From an uncultured Candidatus Actinomarina sp. (GTDB lineage: Bacteria > Actinomycetota > Acidimicrobiia > Actinomarinales > Actinomarinaceae), in contig CACHTH010000003.1 in the NCBI GenBank assembly GCA_902582695.1, forward strand, positions 16,273 through 80,272: 64,000 nt of DNA, written 5' to 3'. The notes under the pieces were generated by a model that saw nothing but the letters and a program-made list of their open reading frames with translations, did no database searches and had not been told where the DNA came from. The translations under genes were made by a program, and so were the position numbers. Positions 55,209 to 61,399 of this stretch are shown piece by piece (within the stretch, counting starts at the first letter, position 1; every line of letters begins with the position of its first letter).

Positions 55209-57161
55209 ATGAATTCAAAGAAAAAAAACATCGAAGCTCAAATAGTAGAAGATTTTGAAAAGATCAGGCCTGCAATTACCAGACTATTGCAAACTCAAAT
55301 GAAAAATGATGATTTATCTATTCGATATGGAAGATCAAAATCTAACAGTAAAAATGATATTGTAATAAATCCATCAATACTTGTTAATACAATTTCAAAA
55401 ACAAATCTTGATAGAGATGAGGTTATGATTGGTACAGTTGTGCACGAAGCGATACATGCAACAAATAACTATAGTTTAGACTCTGAATCCTTAAACAAAC
55501 TATTCCCTGAAGAACTCGATGATGTAGAAGATATTGATGATGTTCTCGAAATACTCACAGGTCCCTTTGGAAAATATGTTTTTGACATCTTAATTCACTC
55601 AATCGAAGAAAAAATCTTTGTGAAACAATATGAAGGTTTAAATTCAATTCTTGAAGATATTTATACTGAGTCATTTTCAGAAATAAAAAAGCTTGGTAAT
55701 TTTAGTCAGTATCTTTCATTATTATTTCACTCAATAACCTCTTATATAGATCCTGAATTTGAAACCTACAAAAAGCCTGTCGTAAGTTCATTGAATGAAT
55801 CTTTACATATTTTAAAAACGTTGAACTATGAAAATGTAAATGTGTCTGAATTAATAGAAGCTACAGTTCAGATGGTTGACATATGTAGACGATATAATAT
55901 TCTTCCAGACTTAGACAACTACACACTTGGAGAACAAAAAGAGATTGAAGAATCCCTTGATGAAAGTGTAGTAAATGATTTAAGTAAAGTTCTTATCCCC
56001 TCCTCCAACAATGTGACAACAGGCAATACTTTGCAGAAATTTCTTGGACAGACAGAGTCTAAATCAACTGATGATAAATTAAATCTAATGGATGATCATA
56101 TATCCAAAGTAGGTGCCTCAACTACAATCTATTTTCCTTCAGGAAATACTGCAAAAGTCGTTGAAAATAAAATTCCAAACAATTACAAAAACTTATACAA
56201 AAATGGTCTAGAAACATACGAATCGTTATTACAACAATGGAATTTACCTATTTATAAAGTTACAAACAAAATAAAACCCTACTTTATACACAACCAAAAA
56301 AGACAAAGAATTAGTGGATTCGATCAAGGAGATTTATCTCCACACGTTCCAATCATGCTTGCGTCAGGCAGGTACGAGAGAATGTTTGAACAAAAACAAA
56401 GACTGTCTAATAAATCATATGCCATATCGCTTTTAATTGATGGAAGTGGTTCAATGATTGAGAAAAATAAAGATGAACTTCATCCTTGGTCTTTAGCTTC
56501 AGCATTAATTGGTGCTAGTTATCTGTCCCAAATATGTTTTGAACTTGATATCGATTTTGAAGTTTCTATTTTTAACAGAGCCTTTGCATCTGAGCATACT
56601 GAAAATGAAGATACATACAATAAAAGAAAATTTGCAGTTTCATCAATGTTAAATAGAACCTACGGATCTTCAGCACAAGAGCTTTATAGTACGGCAAATC
56701 ATTATTTTATAAAAGAGTTTAAAGACTCGTGGAGAGAGAACTATCAGCAATTTATAGGACTAATTGAATTTTCAAGAAACTTAAGAGACTCGATTGACAT
56801 AGGAATAAGTGAAGAGTCAATTCCACCAGTAAGTATGTTTGAAAAAGGAACTAACATCGATGAAATAAATATCATGCATGCAACAAAAAGATTACTAAAC
56901 CATCCTTCGAATACAAAGATGTTGGTTGTGCTGTCTGATGGTATGACTAGAGGGTCGTTGAGTGAACTTCAAAATAGTATAAACTTTGCGACCAAAAATG
57001 GTGTTGATGTAATAGGTATAGGAATAGGTAATAGAGGTTCTTGGAGAGAATATATTAATAATGTACAAATTGAAAAACCGGAACAGTTAATTCATTCCAT
57101 AGTAAACATCACAAAGGATATACTTATTAAAAACATTAAATTAACATCTGGAGTTGCCTAA
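55209..57161 (+). CDS. vWA-domain protein with N-terminal HExxH motif (CobT/NorD-like partner of MoxR ATPase)
   Basis: VVHEAIH; MIDAS DGSGSM and VLSDG; GIGIG. Confidence 0.8.
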   Translation: MNSKKKNIEAQIVEDFEKIRPAITRLLQTQMKNDDLSIRYGRSKSNSKNDIVINPSILVNTISKTNLDRDEVMIGTVVHEAIHATNNYSLDSESLNKLFPEELDDVEDIDDVLEILTGPFGKYVFDILIHSIEEKIFVKQYEGLNSILEDIYTESFSEIKKLGNFSQYLSLLFHSITSYIDPEFETYKKPVVSSLNESLHILKTLNYENVNVSELIEATVQMVDICRRYNILPDLDNYTLGEQKEIEESLDESVVNDLSKVLIPSSNNVTTGNTLQKFLGQTESKSTDDKLNLMDDHISKVGASTTIYFPSGNTAKVVENKIPNNYKNLYKNGLETYESLLQQWNLPIYKVTNKIKPYFIHNQKRQRISGFDQGDLSPHVPIMLASGRYERMFEQKQRLSNKSYAISLLIDGSGSMIEKNKDELHPWSLASALIGASYLSQICFELDIDFEVSIFNRAFASEHTENEDTYNKRKFAVSSMLNRTYGSSAQELYSTANHYFIKEFKDSWRENYQQFIGLIEFSRNLRDSIDIGISEESIPPVSMFEKGTNIDEINIMHATKRLLNHPSNTKMLVVLSDGMTRGSLSELQNSINFATKNGVDVIGIGIGNRGSWREYINNVQIEKPEQLIHSIVNITKDILIKNIKLTSGVA

Positions 57162-58150
57162 TGGGTTCACAAGAATTTATAAATCCTGATAATGAAAAAC
57201 AATCTGTTGAAATAGAGGAATGTAAATTAGATAAAAAATTAGAAGATTTTGACTCACGTAATAATCGAATTCCTGAAGTTGATGAATTTTATGTAGACCT
57301 AGGTATGCAGTACAGACTTGCACAGGTTATGAATTCAAAAAGTAAATCTTTTAAAAATGAGATTCCTATACACATAGCATTAATGGGTCATATGGGAACA
57401 GGAAAAGATCATGACATAGAACAATTTGCAGCAAAACTACGATTTCCATATTACAGAATTCCTTTATCAGGAGAAGTTAGAGACGTAACGCTTTTAGGTT
57501 CTGTTCAGTTGTATGGAGATGGTAAGGGTGGAACTGAAAGCAGGTGGCAAGATGGTGAGCTAACAAGAGCATTAAGAGGGCCAGCAATTGTTAACCTGTC
57601 GGAGCTTAACGCAGCAGGTCCTGAAGTTTTATTTGCCCTTCATTCGTTACTTGATAGACATAGGAAACTAGAACTACCAAACGGAGAAGTTCTTTCTTTA
57701 AGAGAAGATACATATATTTTTGGAACCATGAACCCCACAAGTTTGAGAGATTATGCGGGTACCCAGTCATTAAATAAGGCATTTGCCGATAGGTGGGTCA
57801 TATGGGACAAGCCCTTTCCGAATAAAGAACAATTAGATGCTATTTTTGAAAAAAGATATCCCAAACTTCAAAAAGAATATAGAGAACTAATCATTAAATT
57901 AGCAACAGAAATTAACAACTCATTTATGTCAGATGATATAAGTATCAATATAGAAACCCCTATGAGTTTGCGAACAATAGTAGAGAGAATACCTATTGGC
58001 TTAGATGTTTATGCTGACTCAGCAGATCCATTAAAAGATACTTGGGAAAATTTTGTATTACCTCATGTTAATAAAGAAGACTTAGATCATTACAAAACTT
58101 TGTGGAACACAATAGTTAGAAAAGGGCCTTCTATAAAACCTAAGCTTTAG
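57161..58150 (+). CDS. MoxR/CbbQ/CobS-type AAA+ ATPase with atypical Walker motifs
   Basis: GHMGTGKD, WQDG.LT.A, VNLSELN, TMNP...YAGT..LNKAFADRW, SLR. Confidence 0.88.
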   Translation: MGSQEFINPDNEKQSVEIEECKLDKKLEDFDSRNNRIPEVDEFYVDLGMQYRLAQVMNSKSKSFKNEIPIHIALMGHMGTGKDHDIEQFAAKLRFPYYRIPLSGEVRDVTLLGSVQLYGDGKGGTESRWQDGELTRALRGPAIVNLSELNAAGPEVLFALHSLLDRHRKLELPNGEVLSLREDTYIFGTMNPTSLRDYAGTQSLNKAFADRWVIWDKPFPNKEQLDAIFEKRYPKLQKEYRELIIKLATEINNSFMSDDISINIETPMSLRTIVERIPIGLDVYADSADPLKDTWENFVLPHVNKEDLDHYKTLWNTIVRKGPSIKPKL

Positions 58151-58589
58151 AAAATTTTATTAAAGGGATATCTCTGTTTGTTCTTTTTCTGTACATTTGA
58201 AACGTTGGATACACTTCGTCTAATAAACCCCAGTAATATTCTTTTTCGGAAGACTCGATTAATTCGTAAGTAGCTTCGAAGCGTTCATTGTTTATTGTGA
58301 TAAATGGATTGTCAGTTGAAAGGTTATAAAACCAATCTGGTGTTTTATCATTTCCACTATATGAAGCTGCAACTATAAAATCATTTTCAAAATTTGCATA
58401 AGTTAAAGGTGTTTTTCTAACTTGATTAGTTTTACTCCCAATAGTTTCAAGTAAGAGAATATGGTCCCCTATTATTTTTTCACCAAGGAAAGAGTGATTG
58501 AATCTTATAATTTTGGAGTGAATTTTTGAGATTAACTTATAAAACCATTCCGGCCAGAGATGTGCTGACTTGCCTAGTAATCTCCACAT
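58140..58589 (-). CDS. Deazaflavin (F420)-dependent nitroreductase family protein
   Basis: LLLETIG.KT...R.TPL, AASYSG....PDWFYNL, YP.F..Y...T.RDIP. Confidence 0.88.
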   Translation of the reverse strand: MWRLLGKSAHLWPEWFYKLISKIHSKIIRFNHSFLGEKIIGDHILLLETIGSKTNQVRKTPLTYANFENDFIVAASYSGNDKTPDWFYNLSTDNPFITINNERFEATYELIESSEKEYYWGLLDEVYPTFQMYRKRTNRDIPLIKFSKA

Positions 58590-58884: not shown

Positions 58885-59649
58885 TTGTTGACCTCAAGTA
58901 AACTTAATAAAGTGCAAGAAATATTAAGTAATCTCGTTGCAGAACAGCAATTATTAGATCAATACCTTCAAAGTATTCCTGTTAGAAATTGGAATACTAA
59001 AACTACATACAAAAATTGGGATATCACAGCTCATGTTAGCTACCTTGCAGCTCTTGAAGATCTTGCTCACAATGCACTAAAGAAAAAAGGTACTGACTTT
59101 AATAAATATAAAGGGCCTAAGGGTTTAGAAAAATTTGAAAAAGAAGCAATTAAAAAAGGAAATGACATGAGACCACAAGATGTTATTGAATGGTGGAGAA
59201 TGTCTAGAGCTTCTGTCATTGAAACATTAGCTAAATCATCTCCAGGAAAAAAATTAACTTGGTGGAAAAATGAAATTGATTGTAGAACGTTCGCAGTCAC
59301 TAAACTGGCAGAGACATGGGCACACAGTTTAGATGTTTATGATGCAATGAAAAAAGATTACCAAGACACTGTTCGCGTTGAGCACGTAGCGCTTTTTGGA
59401 TGGCTAAATGCAGAACGAGCAAGTAAGGTCAATAAAACTAAATATCAAGATTTAAGAATAGAGCTAATCGGACCAGAATATAAGGCTTGGCAGTTTGGTG
59501 ATGAAGAAAGCGAAAATAGTATAAAAGGAAATGCTAGTGACTGGTGTAGAGTGGTTACTGGCAGAGTACCCAAGGGTCATAAACTTACACTTTCTACTGA
59601 AGGTGATTTTGCCAAAAAATTCGTTAAATTTAATCACGTAAAAATATAA
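58885..59649 (+). CDS. Mycothiol-dependent maleylpyruvate isomerase family (MDMPI/DinB-like) protein
   Basis: L.AEQ..LD, W...T....W.I..HVSYLA, ETWAHSLD, GP....W.FG. Confidence 0.82.
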   Translation: MLTSSKLNKVQEILSNLVAEQQLLDQYLQSIPVRNWNTKTTYKNWDITAHVSYLAALEDLAHNALKKKGTDFNKYKGPKGLEKFEKEAIKKGNDMRPQDVIEWWRMSRASVIETLAKSSPGKKLTWWKNEIDCRTFAVTKLAETWAHSLDVYDAMKKDYQDTVRVEHVALFGWLNAERASKVNKTKYQDLRIELIGPEYKAWQFGDEESENSIKGNASDWCRVVTGRVPKGHKLTLSTEGDFAKKFVKFNHVKI

Positions 59650-60410
59650 TGCAAGTTTATGGAGTAGTTCACTTAAAAAGCCTCCCTGGCTCCCCTTCTA
59701 ACAGGTTAACTATTGATGAAATTATTGATTCCGCACAAGAAGATGTTAATAGTTTAGTTTATGGTGGTGTTGATGGAATCATAATTGAAAATTTTGGAGA
59801 CACTCCTTTTGTGAAAGATGATATTTCTAAACGTACTCTTGCTAGCTTTACTACAGTTGTAGAAAATTTATCAATAGAAAGAGATATTAAAGTTGGAATA
59901 AATGTTCTAAGAAATGATGGTATTGCAGCTCTTGCAATTGCCGAGGCTACTAAATCACAGTTTGTAAGAATCAATGTTTTAAATAACACTATGTTCACCG
60001 ATCAGGGCGTTATAGAAGGTGATGCTCACGGAGTTAATCAGTTTAAATCAAGCCTCAATAGTTATGTAGAAATTTATGCTGATGTATTTGTTAAACATGC
60101 TGTACCACCTCCCGGTTCAAAAATTGAAAACCATGCAGAAGAATTGATTCATAGAGCTGGTGCAGATGTGGTGATTGTTACAGGAGATGGTACTGGACAT
60201 GAAATAAATATTGAAGATTTACAAAAAGTAAGAAACATTGTTCCAACTGGTAAACTGGCTATTGGATCAGGAGTAACTTCAACAAATGTAGATGCCTATC
60301 AAGATTTGGCAGACATACTGATTGTAGGTACTAGTTTTAAATTTGAAAACGATGTAGCTAAAAGGGTTGACATCAATAGAGTTGAAGAGTTAGTAAGAAA
60401 AATAAAATAA
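59649..60410 (+). CDS. BtpA/SgcQ family TIM-barrel protein
   Basis: GVVHL..LPGSP, IENFGDTPF, GINVLRND, ADVFVKHA, IGSGV. Confidence 0.93.
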   Translation: MQVYGVVHLKSLPGSPSNRLTIDEIIDSAQEDVNSLVYGGVDGIIIENFGDTPFVKDDISKRTLASFTTVVENLSIERDIKVGINVLRNDGIAALAIAEATKSQFVRINVLNNTMFTDQGVIEGDAHGVNQFKSSLNSYVEIYADVFVKHAVPPPGSKIENHAEELIHRAGADVVIVTGDGTGHEINIEDLQKVRNIVPTGKLAIGSGVTSTNVDAYQDLADILIVGTSFKFENDVAKRVDINRVEELVRKIK

Positions 60411-60460: not shown

Positions 60461-61399
60461 ATGGAAGCCATACTTAATCCAGCACTACTATTGTTCCTTT
60501 TAGGAATTCTGATTGGAACTCTATTTAAATTAATTCTTCCTAACTCTATTTCTAAATACTTGGGATATTATTTGTTGCTTTCACTGGGACTTAAAGGTGG
60601 TGCAAGCCTTCAAGAAAATGGATTTATAAATGAAGTTATAAGCGCATTAACACTTGGAGTAGTGTTTGCTCTTTTAATTCCAATTATTGCTTATCTTTAT
60701 CTTAAAAATTTACTCAATAGTGACGATGCAGCCGCACTCTCTGGAACTTACGGATCAGTAAGTGCTGTTACATTTGTGACAGCTATTGCATATCTTACAA
60801 GTACTAATCAAAACTTTGATAACTATATGTCTGCTGTTTTAGTTGTGATGGAGTTCCCAGCAATATTTATGGCACTCTATTTAGTTACACAAAACAAACA
60901 AAATAAAAGTAATAATTTTGAGACTATTAAGACAGCATTTTTAGAAATACCAAATATCATTTTGATCTCATCCTTGTTTATAGGATATTTTGTCAATCAA
61001 ACACTTTTATCTAATTTAGATTTCATAATTGTTGAAATATTTGATTACGTTTTATATGTGTTTTTATTTGTTATGGGAACTAGGGTCGCAAAGAGAATTG
61101 GAGAACTTAAAGGCAAAGGAGCTAGCCTAATTGCTTTTGCTTTATGTACTCCATTGATTGGTTCTATTATTGCTTTACTGGCATCTCTAAACTTTAATTT
61201 TTCTGTCGGCAACGCAACATTGCTTATGGTGTTAACAGCAAGTGCAAGCTATATTGCAGTACCAGCAGTTGTAAAAGACGCTATACCAAATGCAAATCCT
61301 GCTATATACCTTGGACTTAGTTTGGGTGTCACATTTCCATTCAATATCATTGTTGGAATACCTTTATATAACGAACTAGCTAAATACTTTATTGGCTAA
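60461..61399 (+). CDS. sbtA: Sodium-dependent bicarbonate transporter SbtA family
   Basis: YLLLSLGLKGG, YGSVSAVTF, MEFPAI, ASASYIAVPA, SLGVTFPFNI.VGIPLY. Confidence 0.92.
   Translation: MEAILNPALLLFLLGILIGTLFKLILPNSISKYLGYYLLLSLGLKGGASLQENGFINEVISALTLGVVFALLIPIIAYLYLKNLLNSDDAAALSGTYGSVSAVTFVTAIAYLTSTNQNFDNYMSAVLVVMEFPAIFMALYLVTQNKQNKSNNFETIKTAFLEIPNIILISSLFIGYFVNQTLLSNLDFIIVEIFDYVLYVFLFVMGTRVAKRIGELKGKGASLIAFALCTPLIGSIIALLASLNFNFSVGNATLLMVLTASASYIAVPAVVKDAIPNANPAIYLGLSLGVTFPFNIIVGIPLYNELAKYFIG

Follow-up and report, generated by a model that had tools for sequence, protein, structure and literature searches.

Exchanged Walker A and Walker B residues fixed in a CobS/CobT-type ATPase and adaptor pair of Candidatus Actinomarina

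A 64,000-nucleotide stretch of an uncultured Candidatus Actinomarina genome (contig CACHTH010000003.1 of GCA_902582695.1, positions 16,273 to 80,272; hereafter the window, in whose numbering all coordinates are given) carries two overlapping genes, one for an adaptor with a von Willebrand factor A (vWA) domain and one for an AAA+ ATPase. Canonical Walker NTPases bind Mg2+ through the hydroxyl that follows the Walker A lysine, a group that also forms a hydrogen bond with the Walker B Asp. In this ATPase the two residues are exchanged: Walker A reads GHMGTGK-D, with Asp83 after the lysine, and Walker B reads IVNL-S-E, with Ser147 before the catalytic Glu148. Both changes are fixed throughout the family, and we conclude from the alignments that they are held together by purifying selection, as a selected variant and not as a product of decay. 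PspF already provides a case of an acidic residue following the Walker A lysine, and relatives are known in which Glu or Asn replaces the Walker B Asp. The novel part is Asp after the lysine combined with Ser at Walker B, fixed family-wide and seen nowhere else in the sequences or literature searched.

Two Walker positions exchanged and fixed across the family

Asp83 is encoded by GAT at 57407-57409 and Ser147 by TCG at 57599-57601, where the original prediction had placed them, and alignments to two sets of relatives agree on the positions they occupy. Against the AAA domains of midasin, phmmer sets GTGK-D over G(x)GK-T/K and NL-S-ELN over LDELN or LDEIS. A CobS profile alignment sets GTGK-D-HDIEQ over gtgk-s-thieq and vnL-S-ELNAAg over ivf-d-eydag. 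By these alignments Asp83 stands at the Walker A Ser/Thr position and Ser147 at the Walker B Asp position. In place of the classical Walker A pattern GxxxxGK[S/T], the family has GHMGTGK-D at 27 of 27 genomic loci and in 127 of 127 proteins; in place of the classical Walker B pattern hhhh[D/E] followed by a catalytic Glu, it has IVNL-S-E, with the catalytic Glu148 retained.

The feature is a matter of residue identity, so conservation, and not chance, was taken as the proper test. Asp83 and Ser147 are present in 11 of 11 aligned orthologs, at all 27 genomic loci and in all 127 family proteins, the last drawn from two protein databases, and each of 54 distinct DNA sequences encodes D and S. The codons themselves vary: Asp83 is GAT in 32 of these sequences and GAC in 22, while Ser147 uses all four TCN codons (TCA in 17, TCG in 16, TCC in 12, TCT in 9). 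Such synonymous turnover with unchanged residues argues for purifying selection and not decay. Between Actinomarina and its high-GC relatives in the same class, the AAA protein is 54-61% identical and its partner 27-30%. Contigs from RNA libraries differ from the window at 57412 and 57415, which are the synonymous third positions of His84 and Asp85.

The remainder of the catalytic set is also kept. In all of the 34 sequences compared, the canonical relative P0252 among them, K82, E148, N191, R211 and R271 do not vary. N191, R211 and R271 align with the corresponding CobS residues and supply the sensor-1 Asn, the trans Arg finger and the sensor-2 Arg expected of an AAA+ ATPase, bearing out the earlier statement that sensor-1, the arginine-finger region and SLR are intact. 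Their spacing fits that of Rhodobacter capsulatus CobS, for which the available part of a preprint gives sensor 1 as N182, the Arg finger as R206 and sensor 2 as R267 (10.64898/2026.10.09.757910). The double change is thus fixed in a strongly conserved core gene whose other catalytic residues are retained, as would be expected from the original suggestion that it does not represent decay.

The two genes are translationally coupled through a TAATG overlap (Table 1), and the adaptor gene lies directly upstream of the AAA gene at all 27 loci, with open reading frames (ORFs) intact at all 27. Logan contigs from four RNA libraries, which belong to three studies, span the two genes and the junction between them, although contig cover cannot prove transcription. 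The bridging contigs are X19 record 29 (56671-57238) and X16 record 12 (57007-57441).

Table 1. Features of the gene pair and its downstream neighbours, in window coordinates.
Feature	Position	Strand	Basis and conservation
vWA (CobT-like adaptor) gene, 650 aa	55209..57161	+	ORF; N-terminal HExxH...E domain, linker, C-terminal vWA with MIDAS
HEAIH (H79, E80, H83), zincin-type HExxH	55443..55457	+	invariant in 27/27 aligned orthologs
E134, Glu 51 residues after HExxH, candidate third metal ligand, in E-D-A-R-x-E-like motif	55608..55610	+	invariant 27/27
MIDAS D411-x-S413-x-S415	56439..56453	+	invariant 27/27; aligns with CobT DxSxS
D577 (LSDGMTRG), distal MIDAS Asp	56937..56939	+	invariant; DGMTRG in 26/27 loci; aligns with CobT 'sdg'
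TAATG overlap, vWA stop / AAA start	57159..57163	+	codons checked on DNA
CobS-like AAA+ (AAA_5) ATPase gene, 329 aa	57161..58150	+	ORF; Pfam AAA_5 E 7e-16
Variant Walker A and helix start G76-H-M-G-T-G-K82-D83-H84-D85	57386..57415	+	GHMGTGKDH in 27/27 loci
Variant Walker B I143-V-N-L-S147-E148	57587..57604	+	N[LM]SELN in 27/27 loci
Sensor-1 Asn191 (TMNP)	57731..57733	+	invariant 34/34; aligns with CobS Asn
Arg finger R211 (AFADRW)	57791..57793	+	invariant 34/34; aligns with CobS 'drw'
Sensor-2 R271 (MSLR)	57971..57973	+	invariant 34/34; aligns with CobS 'sprt' Arg
TIGR03084-like DinB-fold metal-binding protein	58885..59649	+	family assignment; downstream of pair in 24/27 loci
BtpA/SgcQ family protein	59649..60410	+	family assignment; downstream of pair in 19/27 loci

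Kinship with CobS/CobT and origin of the exchange

The ATPase matches AAA_5 (PF07728) at 58.9 bits with a cut-off of 22 (E 7e-16), its residues 71-211 covering model positions 1-138 of 139, and scores 15.1 bits against MoxR proper (AAA_3, PF07726), for which the gathering threshold is 27. In a phmmer search of solved structures in the PDB, midasins were the top relatives by summed score. The best single-domain matches were the CobS structures 9ujv and 9udk (E 9e-16, 2e-15), followed by CbbQ and NorQ, with matches of this type (5c3c, 9qh4, 6l1q) at E 1e-10 to 1e-7. An hhalign comparison with the annotated CobS of Cereibacter azotoformans plasmid pORIO5 gave a probability of 99.2% and E 2.2e-19 over 238 columns.

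The adaptor resembles CobT in its C-terminal half. Its Pfam VWA match has E 4.1e-5, and hhalign against the annotated CobT VWA domain gave a probability of 96.4% and E 1.2e-9. CobT_C (PF11775) is a marginal pass, at 22.5 bits with a cut-off of 21, and 12 of the 27 orthologs match it at E<=1. The MIDAS (metal-ion-dependent adhesion site) of R. capsulatus CobT is described as D410/S412/S414 in the preprint cited above (10.64898/2026.10.09.757910). The AAA_5 match, the rank of CobS among single-domain structures, the hhalign matches to CobS and to the CobT VWA domain, the protein sizes and the MIDAS position lead us to read the pair, at the level of sequence, as a CobS/CobT-type motor and adaptor, which names the module more precisely than the earlier 'vWA + AAA'.

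For the N-terminal domain of the adaptor, the comparison with CobT is less clear-cut. The CobT N-terminal model PF06213 matches 2 of 27 adaptor orthologs (best E 0.13), and with hhalign this domain found no match to Cereibacter CobT and only 30 columns at a probability of 0.7% against a phage CobT-like protein. H79, E80, H83 and E134 together form, at motif level, the zincin pattern of HExxH plus a candidate third ligand downstream. No curated peptidase family was significant; the best was SprT-like PF10263 over residues 40-86, at 12.9 bits compared with a threshold of 25.6 (E 0.11), and 2 of 27 members matched at E<=1. An HExxH together with an ED-R-E-type motif is also found in a Gordonia phage CobT-like protein (HELCH and EDQRIE; L069 4130-5947), whose EDQRIE aligns with the adaptor's E-D-A-R-x-E motif, and HExxH recurs in the gene adjoining a canonical ATPase at L044 (1-1233), from an actinobacterial relative. 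Cereibacter CobT (L072 5659-7518) has no HExxH and has EAARCE at a comparable place, so that, judged by eye, it has an E-x-A-R-x-E-like motif in common with the adaptor; from these sequences, the CobT N-domain may be a degenerate zincin. The partner had originally been described as having an intact MIDAS plus an HExxH motif, and both are confirmed by the invariance of their residues.

Among named systems, the pair is most like CobS/CobT of the class I aerobic cobaltochelatase CobNST. As far as the preprint's available text goes (10.64898/2026.10.09.757910), both consist of two genes of the same sizes (329 and 650 residues), with an AAA_5 fold, matching distances between Walker A, Walker B, sensor 1, Arg finger and sensor 2, and a partner in which a linker connects an N-domain to a vWA domain whose MIDAS lies at about residue 410. 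Common to both ATPases are an IEQ-AA motif after the P-loop and an NAAG/DAG motif after Walker B. The two also differ. The family has Asp for the post-lysine Ser of CobS and Ser for its Walker B Asp, its gene order is adaptor first, and its adaptor has an invariant HExxH that Cereibacter CobT lacks. In the MoxR-class systems NorQ/NorD and CbbQ/CbbO, too, a vWA-MIDAS adaptor works with an AAA_5 ring and engages both pore and client, and NorQD is described as inserting a metal cofactor. These systems are more distant, however, with canonical Walker motifs and known clients (cNOR, Rubisco) encoded nearby. Midasin (Rea1) shares the combination of AAA_5 and MIDAS and differs in being a eukaryotic six-domain giant.

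The resemblance to CobS/CobT does not extend to being a cobaltochelatase. The chelatase subunit CobN (PF02514) was found in 0 of 5 pair-holding genomes searched (G000, 71% complete; G009, 87% complete and one contig; G042, G055 and G258, 95-99% complete), and the positive control was found in 5 reference genomes. Against the CobS equivalog TIGR01650, the AAA protein scores 59.9 bits and a high-GC ortholog 50.6 bits, the cut-off being 558.55. We therefore rejected CobNST. A decaying, non-functional ATPase was rejected on the codon turnover around invariant residues in the 54 DNA sequences and on the ORFs intact at 27 of 27 loci. What speaks for these two explanations is that two normally essential residues are changed and that CobS and CobT are the closest named families. 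Given the far subthreshold TIGR01650 score, the lack of CobN in the genomes searched, the codon turnover and the intact ORFs, we regard decay or a genuine CobST, even taken together, as scarcely credible.

The closest sequence relatives of the family are CobS-like/CobT-like pairs from phages and metagenomes (the P0252 group, a Gordonia phage, and loci L043 and L044). These share GH-TG-GK and LNAA-PEVLFALH-LLD, and their partner protein has HExxH and the ED-R-E motif. They differ in carrying Thr or Ser as the residue that follows the lysine, in a Walker B of Asp-Glu, Glu-Glu or Asn-Glu, in placing the AAA gene first where the order is visible, and in lacking a core-gene distribution. P0252, the single-domain relative nearest to the family, shares 46% identity with it across residues 35-216 and is canonical at both sites (GKT in GHTGTGK-T, DE in IL-D-ELNAAEPEVLFALHGLLDD). 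Throughout the 21 proteins of its group, the lysine is followed by Thr (18) or Ser (3), and Walker B is Asp-Glu (17) or Glu-Glu (4). Thr also follows the lysine in each of nine further relatives: a cyanophage CobS, the ATPase of the Gordonia phage, a halovirus protein, five loci from other Actinomycetota and, once more, P0252. Their Walker B reads Asp-Glu or Glu-Glu, except in the Gordonia phage, where it is Asn-Glu.

HMMER was run exhaustively over 1.84 billion cluster representatives and returned 4129 matches, of which the best 150 were inspected. Among them was one further full-length cluster, P0123, which is 58% identical and also has GKD/SE; fragments came next, followed by long multi-domain proteins that have midasins as their solved counterparts. 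Asp after the lysine was paired with Ser at Walker B in 0 of 319 AAA domains from long midasin-type proteins. Intermediates, whether GKD with DE or GKT with SE, were absent from the 21 P0252-group proteins, the nine further relatives, the 319 midasin-type domains and the best 150 of the 4129 matches. A check for co-variation of GKD with SE, as the original prediction had proposed, accordingly found both changes in all orthologs and neither in the relatives inspected. In a quick maximum-likelihood tree, the GKD/SE proteins form one branch (SH-aLRT, the Shimodaira-Hasegawa-like approximate likelihood ratio test, 100), with a stem of 3.35 changes per column and short inner branches; this tree does not settle the family's placement among its canonical relatives. 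Since the family forms one branch on a long stem, its relatives are canonical and no intermediates were found, we conclude from these comparisons that both changes arose once, on the family stem, with no surviving intermediate among the sequences inspected.

Walker B variants accompanied by a canonical Thr were seen elsewhere among the relatives: Asn-Glu, together with a GSAKT Walker A, in the ATPase of Gordonia phage ChisanaKitsune (L069 2866-5947), and Glu-Glu in L043, L044 and P0276-P0279. From these sequences, the Walker B Asp seems to be less fixed in the CobS-like radiation than is usual.

The exchanged nucleotide site and its alternatives

The motor is a clade-7 AAA+ (AAA_5) ATPase, and on a slight balance of probability it would work as a hexameric ring that hydrolyses Mg-ATP, with Asp83 on Mg2+, Ser147 hydrogen-bonded to Asp83 and the adaptor acting as in CobST and NorQD. 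On the family stem, the Mg2+-organising carboxylate would have changed place: where the Walker B strand ends, Asp would have given way to Ser147, and at the post-lysine position Ser/Thr would have given way to Asp83. The longer Asp83 would reach Mg2+ directly through its carboxylate, the shorter Ser147 would hydrogen-bond to Asp83, and the charge and rough volume of the canonical Ser/Thr-Asp pair would be preserved by the swap. Glu148, Asn191, Arg211 (contributed by the neighbouring subunit) and Arg271 would work as in CobS, and the invariance of these four residues argues for retained hydrolysis. By analogy with CobST and NorQD, the adaptor would attach to the small AAA subdomain through its N-domain and place its vWA domain above the pore, and the MIDAS would hold an acidic residue of the client; the HExxH site may serve in metal binding or in cleavage of the client.

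We infer the Mg2+ geometry, retained hydrolysis, complex formation and client handling from sequence, and an 'inverted' Mg2+ site of the kind originally proposed is plausible. More tentative, and in our estimate falling a little short of an even chance, is an active AAA+ motor with a truly reciprocal exchange, in which the P-loop helix would supply the carboxylate as a first-shell ligand of Mg2+, with the hydroxyl at the end of the Walker B strand.

How far other proteins anticipate this arrangement can be gauged from the enhancer-binding proteins. Bacterial enhancer-binding proteins (PspF, NtrC class) are members of the same superclade, that of the pre-sensor-1 hairpin; PspF is active as an ATPase. 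Torsins have Asn at the post-lysine position. Escherichia coli PspF has an acidic residue after the Walker A lysine (GERGTGKE), as the family does. It differs in that the residue is Glu and not Asp, the Walker B Asp is retained (LFLDE), the protein serves sigma-54 activation, and there is no vWA partner. The earlier claim that single changes at these positions normally inactivate the enzyme is therefore overstated: PspF is naturally GKE with a normal Walker B, and relatives of the family have Asn-Glu or Glu-Glu with a normal Thr, so that either position, taken singly, varies to some extent in nature. Other parts of the original interpretation fared better, in that the swap is not decay, intermediates were not seen, no client is adjacent and no published description was found. 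The literature searches returned no description of the GKD/SE Walker pair or of the family, with the list of exceptions at the post-lysine position in Supplementary Figure S7 of PMC9599734, which might hold an Asp case, lying outside their coverage.

Several points weigh against a hydrolysing ring with an exchanged Mg2+ site. In the account of Kozlova et al. (2022, PMC9599734), so far as its accessible text extends, the Walker A Ser/Thr and Walker B Asp are joined by a hydrogen bond of 2.6-2.7 Angstrom, and the Walker B Asp is almost strictly conserved and replaced only by Glu. These authors propose that the Walker B Asp is a proton trap and the post-lysine Ser/Thr a proton relay (PMC9599734). 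A first-shell carboxylate would accept protons poorly, so on the relay/trap model ATP might be hydrolysed slowly or not at all. With its Walker B Asp retained, PspF offers no precedent for the double change. His84 and Asp85 differ from CobS as well, the residues after the lysine having gone from S-T-H to D-H-D with all three fixed in the family, and these changes mean that the site may have been rebuilt for something besides Mg2+. Complex formation is suggested by the overlap of the genes, their co-conservation and analogy. The pair-holding families may make up a single clade, in which case the phyletic counts given below may reflect a single event. Finally, no client was identified, and no client gene lies adjacent to the pair.

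The same chemistry lends weight to a different view, in which the ring would be a nucleotide-binding switch with little or no hydrolysis. Bound ATP, perhaps held tightly, would drive assembly of ring and adaptor, turnover would be slow or client-dependent, and the complex would serve as a scaffold or timer. Both residues of the proposed relay/trap pair are replaced, and mutants that lose the Walker B Asp or the post-lysine Ser/Thr are inactive according to work cited in the accessible text of Kozlova et al. (PMC9599734). In CobST, moreover, ATP binding itself is reported to trigger the closed, active hexamer (10.64898/2026.10.09.757910, in the part available). A module that does not hydrolyse ATP would nevertheless have little reason to keep E148, N191, R211 and R271 all invariant in 34 of 34 sequences, and the replacement is a specific reciprocal pair and not a drift to assorted residues. 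We consider a switch of this kind unlikely, though it deserves serious thought.

The D-H-D run raises the further prospect of a changed chemistry, in which K-D-H-D and Ser147 would form a site for another cation (Mn2+, Ca2+ or a transition metal) or another nucleotide, and the ATP site may sense or deliver the metal that the machine handles. Three consecutive residues after the lysine differ from CobS and are fixed in the family, and the related CobNST and NorQD serve metal insertion, as described in the available sources. The rest of the P-loop and both sensors are, in contrast, standard for ATP, and by general structural reasoning helix residues two and three after the lysine would face away from the phosphate and metal site. 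Such a change seems improbable to us, and a hexameric, Mg-ATP-hydrolysing ring with an exchanged pair is the reading we carry forward.

Distribution, neighbourhood and the question of a client

Proteins 82% identical bear names that place the window in Candidatus Actinomarina. Of 36 genomes from this genus, 35 have the AAA gene of the pair; no match was found in the remaining one, which is 69% complete. The pair is retained in the Ca. Actinomarina genomes of about 1 Mb. AAA orthologs occur also in high-GC genomes of 2-4 Mb from the same class, with the 54-61% identity noted above. In a tally of 301 class genomes (including the unpublished genome G240), the distribution by family is all-or-none. 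The gene occurs in f1 (26 of 26), f2 (40 of 40), f10 (11 of 11), f12 (22 of 22), f15 (7 of 7), f23 (3 of 3) and f25 (3 of 3), and was not found in f7 (0 of 34), f8 (0 of 18), f11 (0 of 18), f16 (0 of 16) or f20 (0 of 14). Outside the class, no ortholog was found among 401 phylum genomes, where the best matches are 35-36% identical and canonical. At 27 of 27 loci the pair is single-copy and occupies a fixed syntenic position beside dapB/dapA. We conclude that the pair belongs to the core genes of Ca. Actinomarina and of several other Acidimicrobiia families, in which it is inherited vertically and kept as a single copy.

This behaviour bears on whether the pair could be an anti-phage or conflict system of the vWA-MoxR type, or some other mobile accessory module. 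Kaur et al. (2020, PMC7159879, as far as accessible) describe conflict systems built around AAA+/vWA pairs, and phage proteins are among the nearest relatives of the family. PADLOC, however, returned 0 matches for both proteins, and no VMAP, iSTAND or FtsH third component is adjacent. A mobile module would also sit poorly with a single copy, fixed synteny at every locus, an all-or-none distribution by family and retention in genomes of about 1 Mb. The defence-system reading was rejected on the PADLOC result and the core-gene behaviour, and we regard it as very improbable.

The surrounding array is itself conserved: an M16 peptidase gene, dapB and dapA lie in the opposite orientation, and on the other side are the adaptor, the ATPase, a LOG-family gene, the TIGR03084-like DinB-fold gene and BtpA. 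The LOG-family gene is missing in Actinomarina. At the place it holds in the high-GC relatives, the window has an F420H2-dependent quinone reductase family gene (PF04075, E 6e-25; 58140-58589, minus strand). The 3' ends of this gene and of the ATPase gene share 11 bases. Just downstream of BtpA is a gene for an SbtA-like Na+-dependent bicarbonate transporter family protein (PF05982, E 3e-88; 60461-61399, plus strand).

With LOG, DinB-fold, BtpA, M16 and DapB as neighbours, the earlier statement that no obvious client (CobN among those it named) is adjacent holds. BtpA occurs in 102 of 301 class genomes (a tally that includes G240), and BtpA and strong DinB-fold matches (the latter tally also including the unpublished G209) are found almost only in families with the pair; G240 and G209 enter the tallies alone, and the analysis used no sequence of either. 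BtpA was not found in some pair-holding genomes, namely 6 of 40 in f2, 2 of 11 in f10, 5 of 22 in f12 and 2 of 7 in f15. The TIGR03084-like and BtpA neighbours may form a functional cassette with the pair or may merely share its ancestry. Because the pair-holding families may be one clade and BtpA is not found in some of their genomes, we treat BtpA and the DinB-fold protein as a lead and not as the client.

Three DinB-fold orthologs contain one in-frame stop, TGA or TAG (G125:C1:237349-238089, G135:C113:7258-7992 and G246:C163:4483-5193). These stops may be sequencing errors, broken genes or recoding.

Taken as a whole, the pair is a clade-specific machine of CobS/CobT type without CobN, retained in Ca. 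Actinomarina, which points to an assembly, metal-insertion or processing task. The Ser/Thr-Asp pair is held to be near-universal in P-loop NTPases, and the family would be a natural test of the relay and trap proposed for it (PMC9599734, in its accessible part). If hydrolysis proceeds at normal rates, the roles given to both positions need rethinking; if there is none, the family shows an AAA+ ring becoming a binding-only switch with its sensors kept. The finding is of interest mainly to the fields of P-loop catalysis and MoxR-class chaperones. Should the motor prove active with its exchanged pair, it would amount to a natural swap experiment on the relay/trap module, maintained in an abundant marine lineage, and the machine may couple ATP to a zincin-like adaptor acting on a client that is probably metal-dependent.

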